Counted from the stretch's first letter, positions 34,563 through 52,906 are shown. The stretch: 64,000 bases of DNA from an uncultured Phycisphaerales bacterium (GCA_963758525.1 CAVWVQ010000002.1:224001-288000); one strand, 5' to 3'. Notes: generated from the sequence alone by a model not told the origin. Numbers and translations: made by a program.

Positions 34563-34707
34563 ACCGAAGAGCACTTTATCCAGCGTGCGGCAGAAAACCA
34601 TGGCCAGACGGAAGCGGTGCGTCGCACGCCAACCAATCCGAGGCACGCCCCGCCGTTGGAAGTCTTGACCTTTCTTCGTTTTTCGCCCCACCCCTGCCAT
34701 GTTCGGC

Positions 34708-42666: not shown

Positions 42667-43326
42667 GGCAGGCCGCGCAGCCACGCCCGCGAAGTTGATC
42701 GACATCGGCGCGAGCTTCAGGAGCGCTCGCGTCTGCTGCACTCGAGCCTCTGCGACTTTGCGGAACCGATTAGTGTCGGCAGCGAGCGCGTCCAACGCCT
42801 TGGCATCCTGCTTTGCTGCCAAGGTCCAGTCGTGATCGCCGTCCGCGGCGATCACTGCCGAGAAGAACCGATGCGCTTCATCGACAAGACCGCCTACCGC
42901 ACACGCGACCGCCGCGTCGAAGCTTGGCCAAAAGCCGTTCGGACGATGGCGAGAATAATGCTCTGCGACTGCGTTCACATCGTTGAACATTTTCCGGTAG
43001 CGGTTCACTTCCCCGGCCGCACGCTCCGACAGTTGATCTGACACGGTGGCGAACTGTGCCTCGTTCTCAATTCCTGCGAAGCTCTCAAGTCGGCCACCTT
43101 CATCGAACGAGAGATAGTTCTTGACCTTCCAAAGCCAGCAGCAACCAACGTTCAGATAGCTGCCCCGAGACCAACCGCTTGGCTGGAATTCAACGACGCA
43201 CAACCACCAGCCGTGATCGTCCAACCACGTACGCGACCTGCCCTTCTGCATAAGCCCCATTGGGCGCAGGATACTCCGTGCAGAACGCGCGATGAGTGTC
43301 GAATGAACTGGTGCTTCCTGCCCCAT
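42628..43326 (-). CDS. Cassette-borne protein, DUF4304-like
   Basis: Starts MGQEAP at the GTTATG core; KGRSRTW..VVEFQPS..YLNVG. Confidence 0.65.
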   Translation of the reverse strand: MGQEAPVHSTLIARSARSILRPMGLMQKGRSRTWLDDHGWWLCVVEFQPSGWSRGSYLNVGCCWLWKVKNYLSFDEGGRLESFAGIENEAQFATVSDQLSERAAGEVNRYRKMFNDVNAVAEHYSRHRPNGFWPSFDAAVACAVGGLVDEAHRFFSAVIAADGDHDWTLAAKQDAKALDALAADTNRFRKVAEARVQQTRALLKLAPMSINFAGVAARPAPQPANAMERAGG

Positions 43327-43434
43327 AACGAAGAGGACAATCGGTGGCGGCCAACGCGACGCGCCGCGGAACACTATACCAAGGACAAACTTTCGACGCG
43401 ACGCGGGGCCGTCCACAGCATTGGCTGGTTATCG
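43327..43434 (-). other. attC site (hybrid left end)
   Basis: AAC..GTT cores, stem with two extrahelical bases; near-identical to the 48039 and 52904 sites. Confidence 0.85.
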
Positions 43435-43985
43435 GGCACTTCCGGGCGGCGGGAAGGTACGCAGCTCGGCGCGGAAAGCTTGGCCTTTACGGCCGGACTG
43501 ATCGTGACCAGGTAGTCCGGCAGGGCCGTCACCGCCGGCTTGCCCGGGGACGCGAATGCGCCCGGCTCGTCGTCCCAGTTGATCATGTGCACGACAACGG
43601 ACCATTGCCCGGCCGCCAACGGCATCGCCCGTGTCGACCGCGTCACCTCCCCGGCAACATGCTCGATTCCGCCGACCGCGACCGCCCCGCGGGAGACGAA
43701 GCGGTACGGCTCGGAGGCGAGGAACAGGTATCGCCGCTCTCGCTCCGAAAGCGCAGCCACGCCCGCGCTGCTCAGACGCACCTCTACCTCCGCGACCATG
43801 TCTCGGCCGATGTTGATCGGGACGAAGTCGCCGGCCGAGATGTGCCGTGTTATGTCTGCGTCATCCTCCAGTTCCCGCGCCCACGTTTGGTAGTCATGGA
43901 CCTGCGAAAAGGCTTCCGGCGACCAGAGGGCGTGCATGCCCGCATCGGTCGCGAACGCACCACGCATGGATTCGCTGGTCGGCAT
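43374..43985 (-). CDS. Cassette-borne hypothetical protein
   Basis: Starts MPTSES; cassette ends are 12-bp complementary (gttatcgggcac / gtgcccgataac). Confidence 0.7.
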   Translation of the reverse strand: MPTSESMRGAFATDAGMHALWSPEAFSQVHDYQTWARELEDDADITRHISAGDFVPINIGRDMVAEVEVRLSSAGVAALSERERRYLFLASEPYRFVSRGAVAVGGIEHVAGEVTRSTRAMPLAAGQWSVVVHMINWDDEPGAFASPGKPAVTALPDYLVTISPAVKAKLSAPSCVPSRRPEVPDNQPMLWTAPRRVESLSLV

Positions 43986-44284
43986 CGTCTTGTGCCCGAT
44001 AACGAAGAGGACTTTATCCAGCGTGCGCCAGCGACGCCGGTACTCGCGACCGCTTGTCGCACGCTGGATAAAGTCTGTTGAACTGAACCGATTTTGGACG
44101 TCAACGCACGGGAGCAATTAGCCCGAAAAACCGCGCGCATACATTATTATAGGGGATTGTATTCATAGCATATTTCCGACAAAAAAGGCGGTGTCGCAAA
44201 CTGATAATCGCTCGTCAGAGAGAAGGCTGCGGCGATGCTTAGAGTACCGAACGCCGGGCGACTGCCCACCGCGCAGCGGTTTAG

Positions 44285-46220
44285 GTGCGCCTGCGAGCGT
44301 ACCAGCATAGAGAGGTGCAAGTCCTCTCCGGGCATAGCGTTCTCCAGCCCGTAACTGAAAGTAACTGCGTGGCCGTGAGGCCAGGTGGAGAGCAACTGGA
44401 GGTGAACGACCAGTCCGAAACACAAGTGAACTCGATTCGGCCTGAAACGGTGACGAGCCTGCCTAAAAGTGGCGAAGTCCAGACCCGCGAGGGAGCGATG
44501 CATCTTTCAAGGGAAGCCCGGTGAGCTGAAGGGTAACGTGCAGAGAGGCGACGAGCCTCTCGTAAAGCGATGCCGGGGCCGTGAGGGTGATTGGAGTCGG
44601 AATGGTTGGAAGTGCTGGTGCGTGAAGCAGGGAGACCTGTTCCGGAAAGCGAACGGAGTTCATACGCCGTAACCAGTCGGCGTCGAAGAGCCGCCGGGGC
44701 AGGAGTCAGAGCGTCCGTAGTAGCGACGAAACGCCTTAACGGGCGTGGAGCCAAGGGACGCAGGAAAGTGGATGCGGGATGAATAGACCAATGGAACAAC
44801 AATCGGCGCGAGTGCCCCGACTCGGGGCTAAGCAAGCCGAAGAATCCCATCGCATCGCGGGCGCAGGCTCGCGATGGGCATGGGCGGAACCATCGGTCTG
44901 GACAGCGCGCATGTTGCAGGCCCTTGAACAAGGGGTCAAAGGAGGCATCTGGTTCAGCCTGATTGATAAAGTCTACAAACGCAGCAACCTCTGGTCGTCA
45001 TGGAGTAAGGTGGCGGCCAACAAGGGAGCGGCAGGCGTGGACCATGTGACGGTGAAGCAGTACGAGCGCCATGTGGAAAAGCACATCGAGCATCTGACGG
45101 AAGAACTGAGGGCCGGGACGTATCGGCCCAAGGCGATCCGCCGGTGCTACATCCCCAAACCCGGCAGCGCCCAGGGGCGACCGCTGGGGATACCGACTGT
45201 GCAGGACCGCGTGGTTCAGGGCGTGCTGCGTCACGTGCTGGAACCGATCTTCGAGAAGGACTTTCACGAGCACAGCTACGGCTTTCGCCCCGGAAGGGGA
45301 TGCAAAGACGCGCTGCGTCACGTGCAGAAACTTTTGGACGACGGATACCGGTACGTGGTAGACGCGGATCTGAAAAGCTACTTTGACACGATCCCGCACC
45401 GGCAGTTAATGGAGCGGGTGAGCCAGAAGGTGGCCGACGGACGAGTGCTGAAACTGATCGAATCATTCCTCACGCAAGGCGTGCTGGAAGGACTGGACCA
45501 GTGGACGCCCGCATCCGGCGCGCCGCAAGGCGCGGTGCTCAGCCCACTGCTGAGTAACGTCTATCTGGACCCGCTGGACCATCTGATGGCCCGGCAGGGA
45601 TTCCAGATGGTGCGCTACGCGGATGACTTTGTGATCCTGTGTCAGAGCCAAGAGGAGGCCGAGCGGGCGCTGGCCGAGGTGCAACGATGGACGGCGCAAG
45701 CCGGTCTGACGCTGCATCCGGAGAAGACACGAATCGTCGATGAGCGACAAAAGGGCTTCGACTTCCTGGGCTATCACTTTGGCCAAGGTCAAAGAGAACC
45801 CCGGAGCAAGAGCCTCAAGAAACTCAAAGACACCATTCGTGAAAAGACCCAACGTCGGAACGGCACTCGAATGGTCTGCATCATCGGCACGGTCAATCAG
45901 ACGCTGCGTGGCTGGTTTGGCTACTTCAAACACAGCCGACGCGAGACGTTCGCTCCGCTGGACGCGTGGATCCGTATGAGGCTGCGAAGCATCTTGCGGC
46001 GACGCCACGGCGGGCGTGGACGTGGCGGTGGTCGTGACCACTACCGCTGGCCCAATGCATACTTTGCCAAGCTGGGACTTTTCTCGCTGTTACAAGCCCA
46101 TCGCTTGGCCTGTCAACCCGCTCGAACGGGAACCCACTGACTGGAGAGCCGGATGCGGGAGAACCGCCAGTCCGGTTCGGCGGGAGGGGAGGCCGGGAAA
46201 CCGGCCTTCCCTACCCCGAT
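44285..46220 (+). mobile_element. Group II intron (1936 nt)
   Basis: 5' GTGCG; domain V gagccggatgcgggagaaccgccagtccggttc (46146-46178); domain VI ending ctaccccgat; precise insertion without duplication. Confidence 0.95.
44779..46140 (+). CDS. ltrA: Group II intron reverse transcriptase/maturase, no endonuclease domain
   Basis: NKGAAGVD, RPLGIPTVQDR, SYGFRPGR, PQGAVLSPLL, RYADD, FDFLGY, LRGWFGYF. Confidence 0.95.
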   Translation: MNRPMEQQSARVPRLGAKQAEESHRIAGAGSRWAWAEPSVWTARMLQALEQGVKGGIWFSLIDKVYKRSNLWSSWSKVAANKGAAGVDHVTVKQYERHVEKHIEHLTEELRAGTYRPKAIRRCYIPKPGSAQGRPLGIPTVQDRVVQGVLRHVLEPIFEKDFHEHSYGFRPGRGCKDALRHVQKLLDDGYRYVVDADLKSYFDTIPHRQLMERVSQKVADGRVLKLIESFLTQGVLEGLDQWTPASGAPQGAVLSPLLSNVYLDPLDHLMARQGFQMVRYADDFVILCQSQEEAERALAEVQRWTAQAGLTLHPEKTRIVDERQKGFDFLGYHFGQGQREPRSKSLKKLKDTIREKTQRRNGTRMVCIIGTVNQTLRGWFGYFKHSRRETFAPLDAWIRMRLRSILRRRHGGRGRGGGRDHYRWPNAYFAKLGLFSLLQAHRLACQPARTGTH

Positions 46221-46223
46221 TTC

Positions 46224-46318
46224 AACGGACCAGCATTGAACGGCCGGCCGGGCTTGACCGTTTCTCGAATCACGAGGACCGTTCCGCCCGGCCGGTCCGT
46301 TCCAGTGCTTGGTTATCC
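46224..46318 (-). other. attC site
   Basis: aac..gaacggccggcc / ggccgg t ccgttc c ..gtt. Confidence 0.8.
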
Positions 46319-46834: not shown

Positions 46835-47112
46835 GAAGAGGACTTTATCCAGCGTGCGCCAGCGACGCCGGTACTCGCGACCGCTTGTCGCACGCTGGAT
46901 AAAGTCTGTTGAACTGAACCGATTTTGGACGTCAACGCACGGGAGCAATTAGCCCGAAAAACCGCGCGCATACATTATTATAGGGGATAGCATATTTCCG
47001 ACAAAAAAGGCGGTGTCGCAAACTGATAATCGCTCGTCAGAGAGAAGGCTGCGGCGATGCTTAGAGTACCGAACACCGGGCGACTGCCCACCGCGCAGCG
47101 GTTTAGTTCAAC
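46835..47112. mobile_element. 287-bp unit, copy 2 (9-bp internal deletion)
   Basis: Matches the other copies but lacks tgtattcat. Confidence 0.92.
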
Positions 47113-47467: not shown

Positions 47468-47754
47468 GAAGAGGACTTTATCCAGCGTGCGCCAGCGACG
47501 CCGGTACTCGCGACCGCTTGTCGCACGCTGGATAAAGTCTGTTGAACTGAACCGATTTTGGACGTCAACGCACGGGAGCAATTAGCCCGAAAAACCGCGC
47601 ACACACATTATTATAGGGGATTGTATTCATAGCATATTTCCGACAAAAAAGGCGGTGTCGCAAACTGATAATCGCTCGTCAGAGAGAAGGCTGCGGCGAT
47701 GCTTAGAGTACCGAACACCGGGCGACTGCCCACCGCGCAGCGGTTTAGTTCAAC
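47468..47754. mobile_element. 287-bp unit, copy 3
   Basis: gaagaggactttatcc...gtttagttcaac. Confidence 0.93.
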
Positions 47755-48041
47755 GAAGAGGACTTTATCCAGCGTGCGCCAGCGACGCCGGTACTCGCGA
47801 CCGCTTGTCGCACGCTGGATAAAGTCTGTTGAACTGAACCGATTTTGGACGTCAACGCACGGGAGCAATTAGCCCGAAAAACCGCGCGCACACATTATTA
47901 TAGGGGATTGTATTCATAGCATATTTCCGACAAAAAAGGCGGTGTCGCAAACTGATAATCGCTCGTCAGAGAGAAGGCTGCGGCGATGCTTAGAGTACCG
48001 AACACCGGGCGACTGCCCACCGCGCAGCGGTTTAGTTCAAC
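47755..48041. mobile_element. 287-bp unit, copy 4 (head-to-tail with copy 3)
   Basis: Junction gtttagttcaac|gaagaggac. Confidence 0.93.
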
Positions 48042-48494: not shown

Positions 48495-48840
48495 GAGCAG
48501 GGATAACGAAGAGGACTTTATCCAGTGTGCGACCAAAGCCGTGGCCAAGCCGAACCGGTTCAACGCACACTGGATAAAGTCTGTTGAACTGAACCGGCCG
48601 TCAGCTATGGGGATTGTATCGAGCTGCCGGAGCGGTGTCTCGCTCGGACTGGTGCGGGGCGCATCCGCGCCGTGAGGTGACGGGTGGGAACGGCTTTCCC
48701 GATCGACTCAACCCGGTTGGAATGTCGTCTGGAATCGCCGTTGGCGGACCGCAATCTCACGATCGGCGCGCACCATCCCCCTTGCCGCCGTGGAGCGGTC
48801 AATTGAACAACCGCGAGGATGGGCGGACGTGGCATGTGCA

Positions 48841-50004
48841 TCAGGAGGAGTCCAATCGGGCGAGGAGTTCGGCCAGTTGAAACGGCCCGAGATTCTCTCC
48901 CGGGAGCAACTGGCCCCGGCCGCACGACGGGCAGCACCGAGGTTTGGACGGGCCGGCGCCGAGCACGCCTGGAGTGCCTTCTTCCGGCTTGGTCACGGCA
49001 ATTGCCAGCAGGCGCCGGCAGTCGATCAGGTTCTGTGTTCTCACACAATTGGCCAATAGCCCGAAGTGGCGGATGCGCACGAAGCCGGAGGGAACCGCGT
49101 GCAGCAGGAACCGGCGGAGGAACTCATCTCTGTCCAGCGTCATCGTGCCTGGCCGGTTCTGGTGGGCGTAGTCTTTGTACGTGAAGGTGACGGTCTGGTC
49201 GTCCATCGCGACAAGCCTTCGGTTGGAGATGGCGATGCGGTGGGTGTAGCGACTGAGGTACTTGAGCACCTGCTCGGGCCCGCCGAACGGTGGCTTGGCG
49301 TAGACGACCCAATCGTGTTTGACGGAGAGATCGAGCAGCCGCTCAAAGCCGTCATCGTCTTCCGCGCCGATCAGCTTGCCGCTCTTGCGTGCGCGTTTGA
49401 GCAGGTCGATGAACTTGCCGCGGAAGACTTTGGAGAGCACGCGCACCGGCAGGAAGAAGCCGGGGCGGCAGCGGATCCATTTGGAGCCGTCGGGTGAGAG
49501 CCCGCCGCCGGGAACCACGCAATGCACGTGAGGATGCAGGCAGAGGTTCTGGCCCCAGGTGTGCAGGATGGACATGAAGCCGATCTTCGCCCCCAGGTGC
49601 TTTGGATTGGCCGCCACCTCCGACAGCGTCTGGCCCACGGCATCGAACAGCACGCCATAGATCACCCGTTTGTTGGCCAGCGCCAGCGCGTTGAACGTGT
49701 CGGGAAGCGTAAAGACCACGTGGAAGTATTCGATCGGCAGCAGTTCTTCTGCGCGATCTGCCATCCACCGCGCGCAGGCGGACGCCTGGCACTTGGGGCA
49801 GTGCCGGTTGCGGCAGGAGTTGTAAGCGACACGCCGGTAGTGGCAGTGATCGCACGTCTCGACATGGCCGCCCAATGCGGCGGTGCGGCAGGAGACAATG
49901 GCGCAGGATCCGCTGCTGCGCGCCGCTGAGGTTCTCAAGCCGATGGCCGTGACGTTCGATGACATCCGCCAGTTCCAGCGCGGGCGCTGGAACGGTGGCG
50001 TCAT
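48841..50004 (-). CDS. IS91-family transposase (Zn-binding + Y2 HUH); compensating indels near 49980 and 49902
   Basis: CDHC..NSCRNRHCPKC, HVVFTLP, LHTWG..HPHVH, YLSRY, RIRHFG. Confidence 0.92.
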   Translation of the reverse strand: MTPPFQRPRWNWRMSSNVTAIGLRTSAARSSGSCAIVSCRTAALGGHVETCDHCHYRRVAYNSCRNRHCPKCQASACARWMADRAEELLPIEYFHVVFTLPDTFNALALANKRVIYGVLFDAVGQTLSEVAANPKHLGAKIGFMSILHTWGQNLCLHPHVHCVVPGGGLSPDGSKWIRCRPGFFLPVRVLSKVFRGKFIDLLKRARKSGKLIGAEDDDGFERLLDLSVKHDWVVYAKPPFGGPEQVLKYLSRYTHRIAISNRRLVAMDDQTVTFTYKDYAHQNRPGTMTLDRDEFLRRFLLHAVPSGFVRIRHFGLLANCVRTQNLIDCRRLLAIAVTKPEEGTPGVLGAGPSKPRCCPSCGRGQLLPGENLGPFQLAELLARLDSS

Positions 50005-50868
50005 GTCGTTGCGGCGACTGCCTGTGGCGCGTAAAGCAGATCCAGCGGACTTGCAGCAGCGCTCAACTTGGCCTGCGGAGACGTGCAGGTAGATTGCCGT
50101 GGTCTTGATGTTGCGGTGTCCCAGCAGCACCTGGATCGTCCGCAGGTCGGTGCCCGCATCCAGCAGATGCGTGGCATAGCTGTGACGCAGCGTGTGCGGA
50201 CTGACCGGCCGCGTGATGCCCGCGCGGCGGGCGAACCGCTGCACGATCCGGCAACCTCCTCCGCCATCCTGATGGCGGGTGGGATCATCCGACTGGGGGA
50301 AGAGCCACTCGGCCGGACGCGCCTGCTTCCAGTAGTCGCGCAGCACCGCCAGCAGTTGCGGGGAGAGCTTGGCCATCTGAGCCTTGCTCCCCTTGCCGTC
50401 GCGAACGTGGATCAGCATCCGCGAACTATCGATATCCCCCGGCTTCAGCGCCAGCGCCTCGGAGATGCGCAGCCCCGCGCCGTAGAGCGTCATCATCAAT
50501 GCCTGGTGCCTGGGCTCATTGGCCGCAACCTCGAAAAGCCGGCGCAGCTCATCGGGCGAGAGGACCATGGGGAGCCGTTTGGGCCGCTTGGCGCAGGGGA
50601 GCTTCTCGAACCACTCGTCGCGCCCAAGCGTCACGCGGTAGAAGAACTGAAGGGCGCAGCGCGTCTGGTTGTAGAGGCTCCAGCTCACCTTCCGTTCCTT
50701 CACCATGTACAGCAGGTACTGGCGTACCTGTTCGCCGCTGAGTTGCTCGGGCGAACGGCCATAGTGTCTGGAGAAGTGAGCCACCGCCCGCACATAGGCT
50801 TCCACCGTGTGCGGCGAGAAGTTGCGCAGCTGAATGTCCTCGATCAGTCGTTGCCGAAGTGCCGTCAT
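50001..50868 (-). CDS. Tyrosine recombinase with N-terminal SAM-like domain (one extra base near 50075)
   Basis: GLRISE, GKGSK, HTLRHSYATHLL, LLGH, IY; true C-terminus ..SPLDLL in a shifted frame with ATGA overlap into the transposase; aggag RBS. Confidence 0.92.
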
Positions 50869-50989
50869 CAAATCGCTCCTTGTAAGAGAAGCGATCCATG
50901 ATGCCGGGCACCGATCAACGGTACGATTTTGCGGGCAGTGCAGAAATGAAGGTTACGTCTGTCCCCACCGCGCAGCGGTTTAGTTCAAC

Positions 50990-51619: not shown

Positions 51620-51906
51620 GAAGAGGACTTTATCCAGCGTGCGCCAGCGACGCCGGTACTCGCGACCGCTTGTCGCACGCTGGATAAAGTCTGTTGAACT
51701 GAACCGATTTTGGACGTCAACGCACGGGAGCAATTAGCCCGAAAAACCGCGCGCATACATTATTATAGGGGATTGTATTCATAGCATATTTCCGACAAAA
51801 AAGGCGGTGTCGCAAACTGATAATCGCTCGTCAGAGAGAAGGCTGCGGCGATGCTTAGAGTACCGAACACCGGGCGCCTGCCCACCGCGCAGCGGTTTAG
51901 TTCAAC
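51620..51906. mobile_element. 287-bp unit, copy 5
   Basis: Near-identical to the other copies. Confidence 0.93.
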
Positions 51907-52619: not shown

Positions 52620-52906
52620 GAAGAGGACTTTATCCAGCGTGCGCCAGCGACGCCGGTACTCGCGACCGCTTGTCGCACGCTGGATAAAGTCTGTTGAACT
52701 GAACCGATTTTGGACGTCAACGCACGGGAGCAATTAGCCCGAAAAACCGCGCGCATACATTATTATAGGGGATTGTATTCATAGCATATTTCCGACACAA
52801 AAGGCGGTGTCGCAAACTGATAATCGCTCGTCAGAGAGAAGGCTGCGGCGATGCTTAGAGTACCGAACACCGGGCGCCTGCCCACCGCGCAGCGGTTTAG
52901 TTCAAC
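52620..52906. mobile_element. 287-bp unit, copy 6
   Basis: Near-identical to the other copies. Confidence 0.93.

Follow-up and report, generated by a model that had tools for sequence, protein, structure and literature searches.

An endonuclease-less group II intron outside class C, inserted in the terIS-like end of an IS91-like element in a Phycisphaerales cassette array

In a stretch of 64,000 nucleotides from an uncultured Phycisphaerales bacterium (GCA_963758525.1 CAVWVQ010000002.1:224001-288000; this whole stretch is called the window), a group II intron interrupts the last bases of a small gene-less element that is itself lodged in an attC site. This three-level nesting, as described in the original prediction, is real. 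It raises the question of what the intron recognizes at such a site, and whether it homed into an element end already present in the chromosome or was delivered there with the element. The comparisons below make it likely that an intact-looking, endonuclease-less intron, which splits the terminal GTTC of an IS91-like element, retrohomes into resident chromosomal ends by means of a hairpin, a 5-bp EBS1 helix and a 1-bp EBS3 pairing on transient single-stranded DNA.

The intron and the element end that it occupies

Comparison of the filled site with six empty sites set the boundaries as CGGTTTAG^GTGCG...CCCGAT^TTCAAC (carets mark the insertion point). The intron is encoded on the + strand, in antisense orientation to the cassettes, and the 3 nt TTC separate it from the AAC core of the attC R' box that follows; sequence and filled/empty comparison agree with the original prediction on both points. 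The intron proposed there, at 44277..46226, is real, but that interval extends 8 nt into the 5' exon and 6 nt into the 3' exon. The parts of the intron are:

44285..46220, + strand: group II intron, 1936 nt, GTGCG...CCCGAT; from filled versus empty site and Rfam RF00029; four full copies in the genome, 99.9% identical
44779..46140, + strand: intron-encoded protein, 453 aa, RT (YADD) and maturase without an endonuclease domain; Pfam RVT_1 and GIIM only
46146..46178, + strand: domain V, AGC triad at 46147-46149
46181..46218, + strand: domain VI, bulged A at 46213 (predicted branch point)

The protein matches TIGR04416 at 404 bits (cutoff 300), and a Pfam search found RVT_1 and GIIM and no endonuclease domain, in line with what had been expected of it, as is the AGC triad. 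RF00029 matches domains V and VI at 50.5 bits. The ends conform to GUGYG at 5' and AY at 3'; with domain V, domain VI with its bulged A, the RT-maturase reading frame and the EBS1-IBS1 pairing described below, they identify the intron, as far as sequence features can, as a mobile endonuclease-minus group II type. A scan of 43900-44800 revealed no sigma-70-like promoter for a precursor transcript.

The element sequences that surround the intron are:

44004..44284, no strand: mini-element copy 1, left 281 of 287 bp, a gene-less derivative of the IS91-like element
46221..46226, no strand: last 6 bp of mini copy 1 (TTCAAC), of which AAC is also the attC R' core
46224..46318, - strand: attC of the upstream cassette, R' core to R'' box; bottom strand is the + strand; fold z = -6.1, and repeat families
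46835..47112, no strand: empty mini copy with a 9-nt deletion
47468..48041, no strand: a tandem pair of empty mini copies (47468-47754, 47755-48041), whose junction gives a long hairpin when folded, z = -9.4
48508..50989, - strand: full IS91-like element, 2482 bp, with a tyrosine recombinase (50868-50004) and an IS91 Y2 transposase (49998-48841); empty target after 50983
51620..51906, no strand: empty mini copy
52620..52906, no strand: empty mini copy

The full element has Pfam matches to Phage_integrase, Y2_Tnp and Zn_Tnp_IS91, and its transposase matches NF033538 at 420 bits (cutoff 125). The 287-bp mini-element has in common with it the left ~90 nt (79%) and the right 26 nt (100%). The possibility that the mini-element is an ordinary cassette that lacks genes and has an attC of its own was rejected, given that its ends match those of the recombinase and Y2 element; its left hairpin also lacks the spacer and bulge pattern of the array attCs, although joined mini ends do imitate an attC. 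Six empty targets do exist, as originally counted, of which only five belong to mini-elements, the sixth (after 50983) being the end of the full element. The terIS of the IS91 family comprises a subterminal palindrome and a GTTC cleavage site, according to the available text of a paper on that family (PMC13181058), and here the intron splits the terIS-like tetranucleotide as G^TTC. The target is a terIS-like end common to a widespread IS91-like family and its mini derivative, and is not peculiar to the latter.

The extent of the family was gauged from the end motif, CACCGCGNAGCGGTTTAG, which occurs in about 3000 metagenome stretches (an estimate from 3 of 64 parts). In a sample of 121 metagenome loci, all of which have the hairpin by construction of the search pattern, the site is followed by TTC in 118, the exceptions being one filled site, one GTCAAC and one locus cut short. 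When 8 genome loci were added, a recombinase lay directly upstream of the motif in 42 of the 66 loci with at least 400 nt of upstream sequence. The genome's minis all follow an AAC (8/8), seven of them with left flanks ending in ATAAC as in R' boxes and one at the tandem junction; over all elements the left flanks read ..ATAAC, ..ATACC or, in the tandem, ..TCAAC, and a GTTC/CTTG oriIS target was not found. A crude fold test scored attC-like downstream flanks of the host element in 16 of 79 cases versus 26 of 790 shuffles, an enrichment that concerns a minority of flanks.

Several side observations concern these elements. In the single full IS91-like copy of the genome, recombinase and transposase form one continuous frame of 676 aa (window 48841-50871), with no stop between them, unlike in its relatives, and a stretch at the transposase N-terminus departs from the closest relative; decay or assembly indels could each be the cause. 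In the fold of the tandem junction (47742-47841), the left end contains an inverted copy to which the right end pairs, in imitation of an attC; a circle would have the same junction. An attC at window 43326-43440 starts with AAC-GAAGAGGAC, like the left end of the element, beyond which it has a normal attC arm; it could be a hybrid or a footprint of excision. At G000:C3:101277-101361 (G000 being the genome) a perfectly palindromic element left hairpin is closed by GTTAGCC, which yields an attC-like site ahead of an ORF, and interconversion between element ends and attC sites may occur. An isolated remnant of the left end (window 34566-34630) lies outside the array and is preceded by ..ATACC, not ..ATAAC. 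In viral contigs (L273, L279, L289, L293-L296) the end motif also occurs with CAAC behind it and with neither recombinase nor transposase, several times in one of them, like a cassette-array repeat.

Recognition of the site and placement of the lineage

To ascertain how the site is read we turned to relatives of the intron. A search of one genome per species returned 323, and the best 80 of 323 (50–67% protein identity) were kept. With the window intron there were 81 loci, of which 53 gave a 5' boundary; the other 28, with short flanks or a pattern miss, were left out of the counts. The alignments include kin, whose rows are not independent. The following elements emerged:

44463..44467, + strand: EBS1 (CTAAA) in a domain I stem-loop; covariation with exon positions -1 to -5 in 41 sequences, loop position in the consensus fold
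44280..44284, + strand: IBS1 (TTTAG), whose final G begins the terminal GTTC split by the intron
44590, + strand: EBS3 (A), with T46221, where the 3' exon starts, as its predicted partner; the best-fitting column for exon +1
44268..44280, + strand: hairpin of the target, ACCGC-GCA-GCGGT, a terIS-like subterminal palindrome with 4 nt between it and the insertion point

Over 41 distinct domain I sequences, the EBS1 columns are Watson-Crick with exon -1 to -5 in 100, 98, 95, 90 and 72% of rows, where 28–42% is expected, and at least four contiguous pairs form in 38 of 41 rows, as against a mean of 3.7 and a maximum of 11 in 2000 partner shuffles. The loop CTAAAA (44463-44468) had been proposed as EBS1; covariation and consensus fold uphold its first five letters, and the sixth, A44468, faces a G, leaving a helix of 5 bp rather than 6. 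Helices of 5–6 bp are found in 32 of the 41 relatives. Column 44590 is Watson-Crick with exon +1 in 94% of 36 rows (expected 80%), the pair being G:C in most rows and A:T in the window intron, L004 and L145, while L008 and L032 are unpaired. No column covaries with exon -6 to -16 as an EBS2 would (best excess 0.27, no register).

The hairpin just upstream of the site, which the original prediction had overlooked, is a trait common to the whole lineage. Of 49 distinct 5' exons, 43 contain a perfect hairpin with a stem of at least 5 bp whose end lies no more than 7 nt from the site, whereas the same criterion is satisfied by 436 of 6581 random flank positions (6.6%) and by 4 of 44 3' exons. Close homologues at unrelated targets had been named in advance as evidence against specialization, and this half came true: relatives at 50–67% protein identity do insert at unrelated sequences, albeit nearly always after a hairpin. 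In genomes of the same family, the relatives follow different hairpins with GCTA at the end, as seen at 8 boundaries in 13 loci. As side observations, two MAGs (L024-L031; L061-L071) each hold 7–8 copies of a single member of the lineage, which follow REP-like hairpins of various kinds, and an AGGA-containing domain I bulge (equivalent of 44417-44428) is present in L003, L004, L006 and most relatives and absent from the window intron, L002 and L007. Class C introns are characterized by an 11-nt AGGAA bulge in the epsilon-prime region.

These data bear on the idea that the intron targets the R' side of the attC itself, as a mirror image of IIC-attC introns. An attC arm does follow all four full copies. 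However, EBS1 pairs with element sequence and not with the attC, the lineage's hairpins lie 5' of the site and not 3', and no copy occurs in an attC that lacks an element end; the fragment in the C1 array precedes only a truncated attC, and the 3' flank of the metagenomic relative L145 has no evident attC by eye. The idea is largely refuted, and we give it next to no credence. Instead, the element end, with its hairpin, appears to be what the intron reads.

Is the intron, then, a member of class C? It resembles class C (IIC) introns such as B.h.I1 in having no endonuclease and no EBS2, in the stem-loop that occupies the place of IBS2, in a short EBS1 with EBS3 and in a site a few nucleotides after the hairpin, yet it departs from the definition of that class, as far as the available text of PMC1702495 gives it, in its AGC rather than CGC triad, its EBS1 helix of 5 bp rather than 3–4, a protein that lies outside class C and g6, and a target that consists of a triloop hairpin with a 5-bp stem at a transposon end and not of a terminator. 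A 59-row quick tree placed the window protein in a 41-row clade (SH-aLRT 99), apart from the class C, g6, D, E, F and g1 references, with the class C references forming their own group (SH-aLRT 97; with g6, 98). A class G (g1) identity was rejected, the g1 reference being far from the window clade in this tree. The intron works like IIC, yet by triad, helix length and clade it is not IIC.

Nor is this a standard IIC-attC insertion, as had been predicted. Introns of that kind (S.ma.I2 type; PMC3001079, PMC7923331) likewise occupy the attC bottom strand within cassette arrays and run antisense to the cassette genes, but they are class C and are described in PMC7923331, as far as available, at TTGT/T in R'', after the attC hairpin, while the window intron, at TTTAG^T, lies before it, on the R' side, within element sequence. 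Two integron-borne references (L258, L259), whose IIC-attC label was inferred from context, fall inside class C, and the window protein falls outside.

The clade of the window protein includes the Paraburkholderia aromaticivorans pBN3 intron (NZ_CP022993), which Table S3 of Miura et al. 2022 (PMC8919778, available in part) labels 'Unclassified', and a finished 28-row tree supports the clade with that intron at 99/99; two other Unclassified references were placed elsewhere in the quick tree. Miura et al. found roughly half of the g6, U1 and U2 introns to lie after terminators; the available part of their paper gives, for the Unclassified introns (U1-U3), neither an EBS analysis nor a transposon-end target, unlike here (PMC8919778).

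Specialization, copies and order of events

The genome contains four full intron copies, 0–2 bases apart, and a 329-nt 3' fragment. All four full copies stand at GCGGTTTAG^TTCAAC, and TTCAAC also follows the fragment. The one independent close relative that was found with both junctions, L145 (metagenome, 87% aa identity), has them at the same site, with the same EBS1 and EBS3; its ORF is frameshifted at 1350, which may be real or an assembly error. The genome holds 330 empty TTTAG^T sites, 26 of them with a hairpin, of which 6 are element ends, and every insertion is at an element end. The specialization originally proposed is borne out by the four copies, the 3' exon of the fragment and the 87% relative, except that the end belongs to the IS91-like family and not to the mini-element alone. 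A specialist on this IS91-like end is supported by these sequences, which represent two intron variants.

A generic hairpin-seeker that lands wherever the commonest hairpin matches its EBS1 would give a similar picture. Indeed, the lineage as a whole uses many unrelated hairpins, element ends are the only repeated class among the 26 candidate sites, and occupancy of the motif is low, with 1 of 121 metagenome loci filled (L145). Against this, the 20 other hairpin and TTTAG^T sites in the genome are all empty, and EBS1 and EBS3 have both left the lineage's usual letters to fit the motif and have kept the change in a relative that is 13% diverged. We therefore hold this explanation to be quite improbable and favor specialization on the end. 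No filled site was found in 400 other genomes of the phylum, nor in viral contigs, which yielded one distant relative.

Recombinase or Y2 genes adjoin 2 of the 80 distant relatives (L076, L077). These belong to a second branch with six insertions in five genomes (L074, L076, L077, L301, L304, L305), all after CCGC-GNA-GCGG hairpins, in which the intron sits two bases further on in the same tetranucleotide (GTA^C, GTC^, GTT^) and EBS1 is TACG, GACG or AACT, tracking the end variant. A recombinase is adjacent in four of the six, the other two having 34–41 nt of flank, and one of the genomes also has an empty GTAC end. A single clade for both branches was rejected (AU p = 3e-7; 28-row tree, the groups having been defined by target once the first tree was known). 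Therefore, the IS91-like end was adopted at least twice.

The four copies also record an order of events. Three are mini::intron units in three different attC sites, and the fourth filled copy (C3:3033443) is in an element end that is not a mini. The intron-carrying minis differ pairwise at 3–6 of 281 sites and their introns at 0–1 of 1936; in the two C1 copies the introns are identical and the surrounding minis have 6 differences in 281 positions. Because the minis diverge more than their introns, flank divergence favors recent homing into ends already in place. The window and one C1 copy have a SNP and the adjacent cassette in common, and the same cassette, mini and intron recur at window 43380-46229 and G000:C1:202010-204860 (99.75% over 2851 nt); this pair may represent one event, duplicated as cassette, mini and intron. 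Within it, five of six substitutions fall outside the intron (p = 0.015). Altogether, the copies suggest at least two homing events, and probably three or four. The C1 array has a true IntI adjoining it (TIGR02249, 339 bits) and the window array does not.

As separate observations, the 329-nt fragment, at G000:C1:204866-205947, joins a truncated attC through TTCAAC and is interrupted by a gene that resembles REP-associated tyrosine transposases and scores below the HMM cutoff. The genome has further relics of group II introns at G000:C3:2745193-2745877 (a deleted relative, 73% aa, after a different hairpin), C3:870454-871755 (a 40% RT grouping with a class F reference) and C3:832840-832914 (a lone domain V-VI). 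Among the DNA runs compared, X1 may come from the source sample; contigs of runs X5 and X7 span the 5' junction with only 21 matching exon bases and were not counted as support.

Alternatively, the intron may invade the excised single-stranded circle or ride with the element, the recombinase then delivering the composite into attC at the AAC core. The finding of mini::intron units in three attC sites would fit this, as would the joined ends, which fold into a long hairpin whose TTCAAC-GTTGAA pair survives insertion; a joint of 44284 to 44001 in run X5 is explained equally by a tandem. The strand hit is antisense to the transposase and, by analogy, corresponds to the 'bottom' strand of the functional single-stranded circle of IS91, as the available text describes it (PMC13181058). 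It is also the bottom strand of the attC and so does not discriminate; use of the element's single-stranded intermediates is possible, being compatible with the strand hit and not singled out by it. The greater divergence of minis than of introns, the substitution pattern of the window and C1 pair (for which selection on the intron, or its gene conversion, is another possible cause) and the copy in a different element end all argue against delivery with the element, and we consider it improbable. Recent homing into resident ends remains our preferred account.

Proposed mechanism and significance

Endonuclease-less introns can use the single strand at a replication fork as substrate and the nascent strand as primer for cDNA synthesis. 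By this route the RNP would reverse-splice into single-stranded DNA where the hairpin forms, held by EBS1 and EBS3, with the hairpin probably standing in for IBS2 as in class C; the single strand would arise at the fork, and the nascent strand would prime cDNA synthesis. GC skew was noisy and gave no usable signal of fork orientation or replication-strand bias. The branch to which the window intron belongs presumably retuned EBS1 and EBS3 from the usual ..CTA^C of the lineage to TTTAG^T, which would have made it a specialist on a multicopy, non-coding target, and the second branch converged on the same tetranucleotide. Insertion moves the hairpin 1.9 kb away from the cleavage site and alters GTTC to TTTC. 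Such a split end would be expected to impair rolling-circle termination; it is likely disabled or read through, because splicing cannot repair a DNA signal, while the AAC core of the attC would stay intact.

RmInt1, a class D intron, uses both EBS1 and EBS2 inside its IS; the target of the window intron is instead a terminal cleavage motif, read with a hairpin. The two are alike in being endonuclease-less introns with a multicopy IS as landing site (ISRm2011-2 for RmInt1; PMC1802570, from the text available). The host element, for its part, resembles IS91, IS801 and IS1294 in its Y2 HUH transposase and in the subterminal palindrome and GTTC end upstream of its genes, and differs from the family, as described in the accessible part of PMC13181058, in having a tyrosine recombinase and a 287-bp gene-less derivative and in abutting ...ATAAC of attC R' boxes at its other end rather than GTTC/CTTG. 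Each ingredient has precedent: hairpin targeting in IIC, homing into IS elements and introns in cassette arrays. Their combination, a non-IIC lineage with a terIS-like target and convergence upon it, was not found in the literature searched, which lay largely outside subscription journals.

A further-reaching proposal is that this non-IIC, hairpin-reading lineage at least twice became a dedicated hyperparasite of integron-targeting IS91-like elements. It would insert into the tetranucleotide cut by the transposase by way of the single-stranded circle, and would so disarm the element, force one-ended transposition of neighboring cassettes or be carried into attC by the recombinase. We regard this as tentative and rather unlikely in its entirety.

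Hairpin-guided targeting is credited to subgroup IIC in the available portions of PMC12584367 and PMC1702495. The lineage shows hairpin targeting with an AGC ribozyme and a different protein, its natural EBS1 variants reveal the targeting rule, and it provides a direct test of whether the reading of the hairpin resides in the RNA or the protein, as well as a possible short-guide, endonuclease-free targeting tool. For the host elements, the introns mark the functional end of an IS91-like family that parasitizes attC sites and, by splitting the cleavage motif, may control the mobility of the element or promote the capture of adjacent cassettes.
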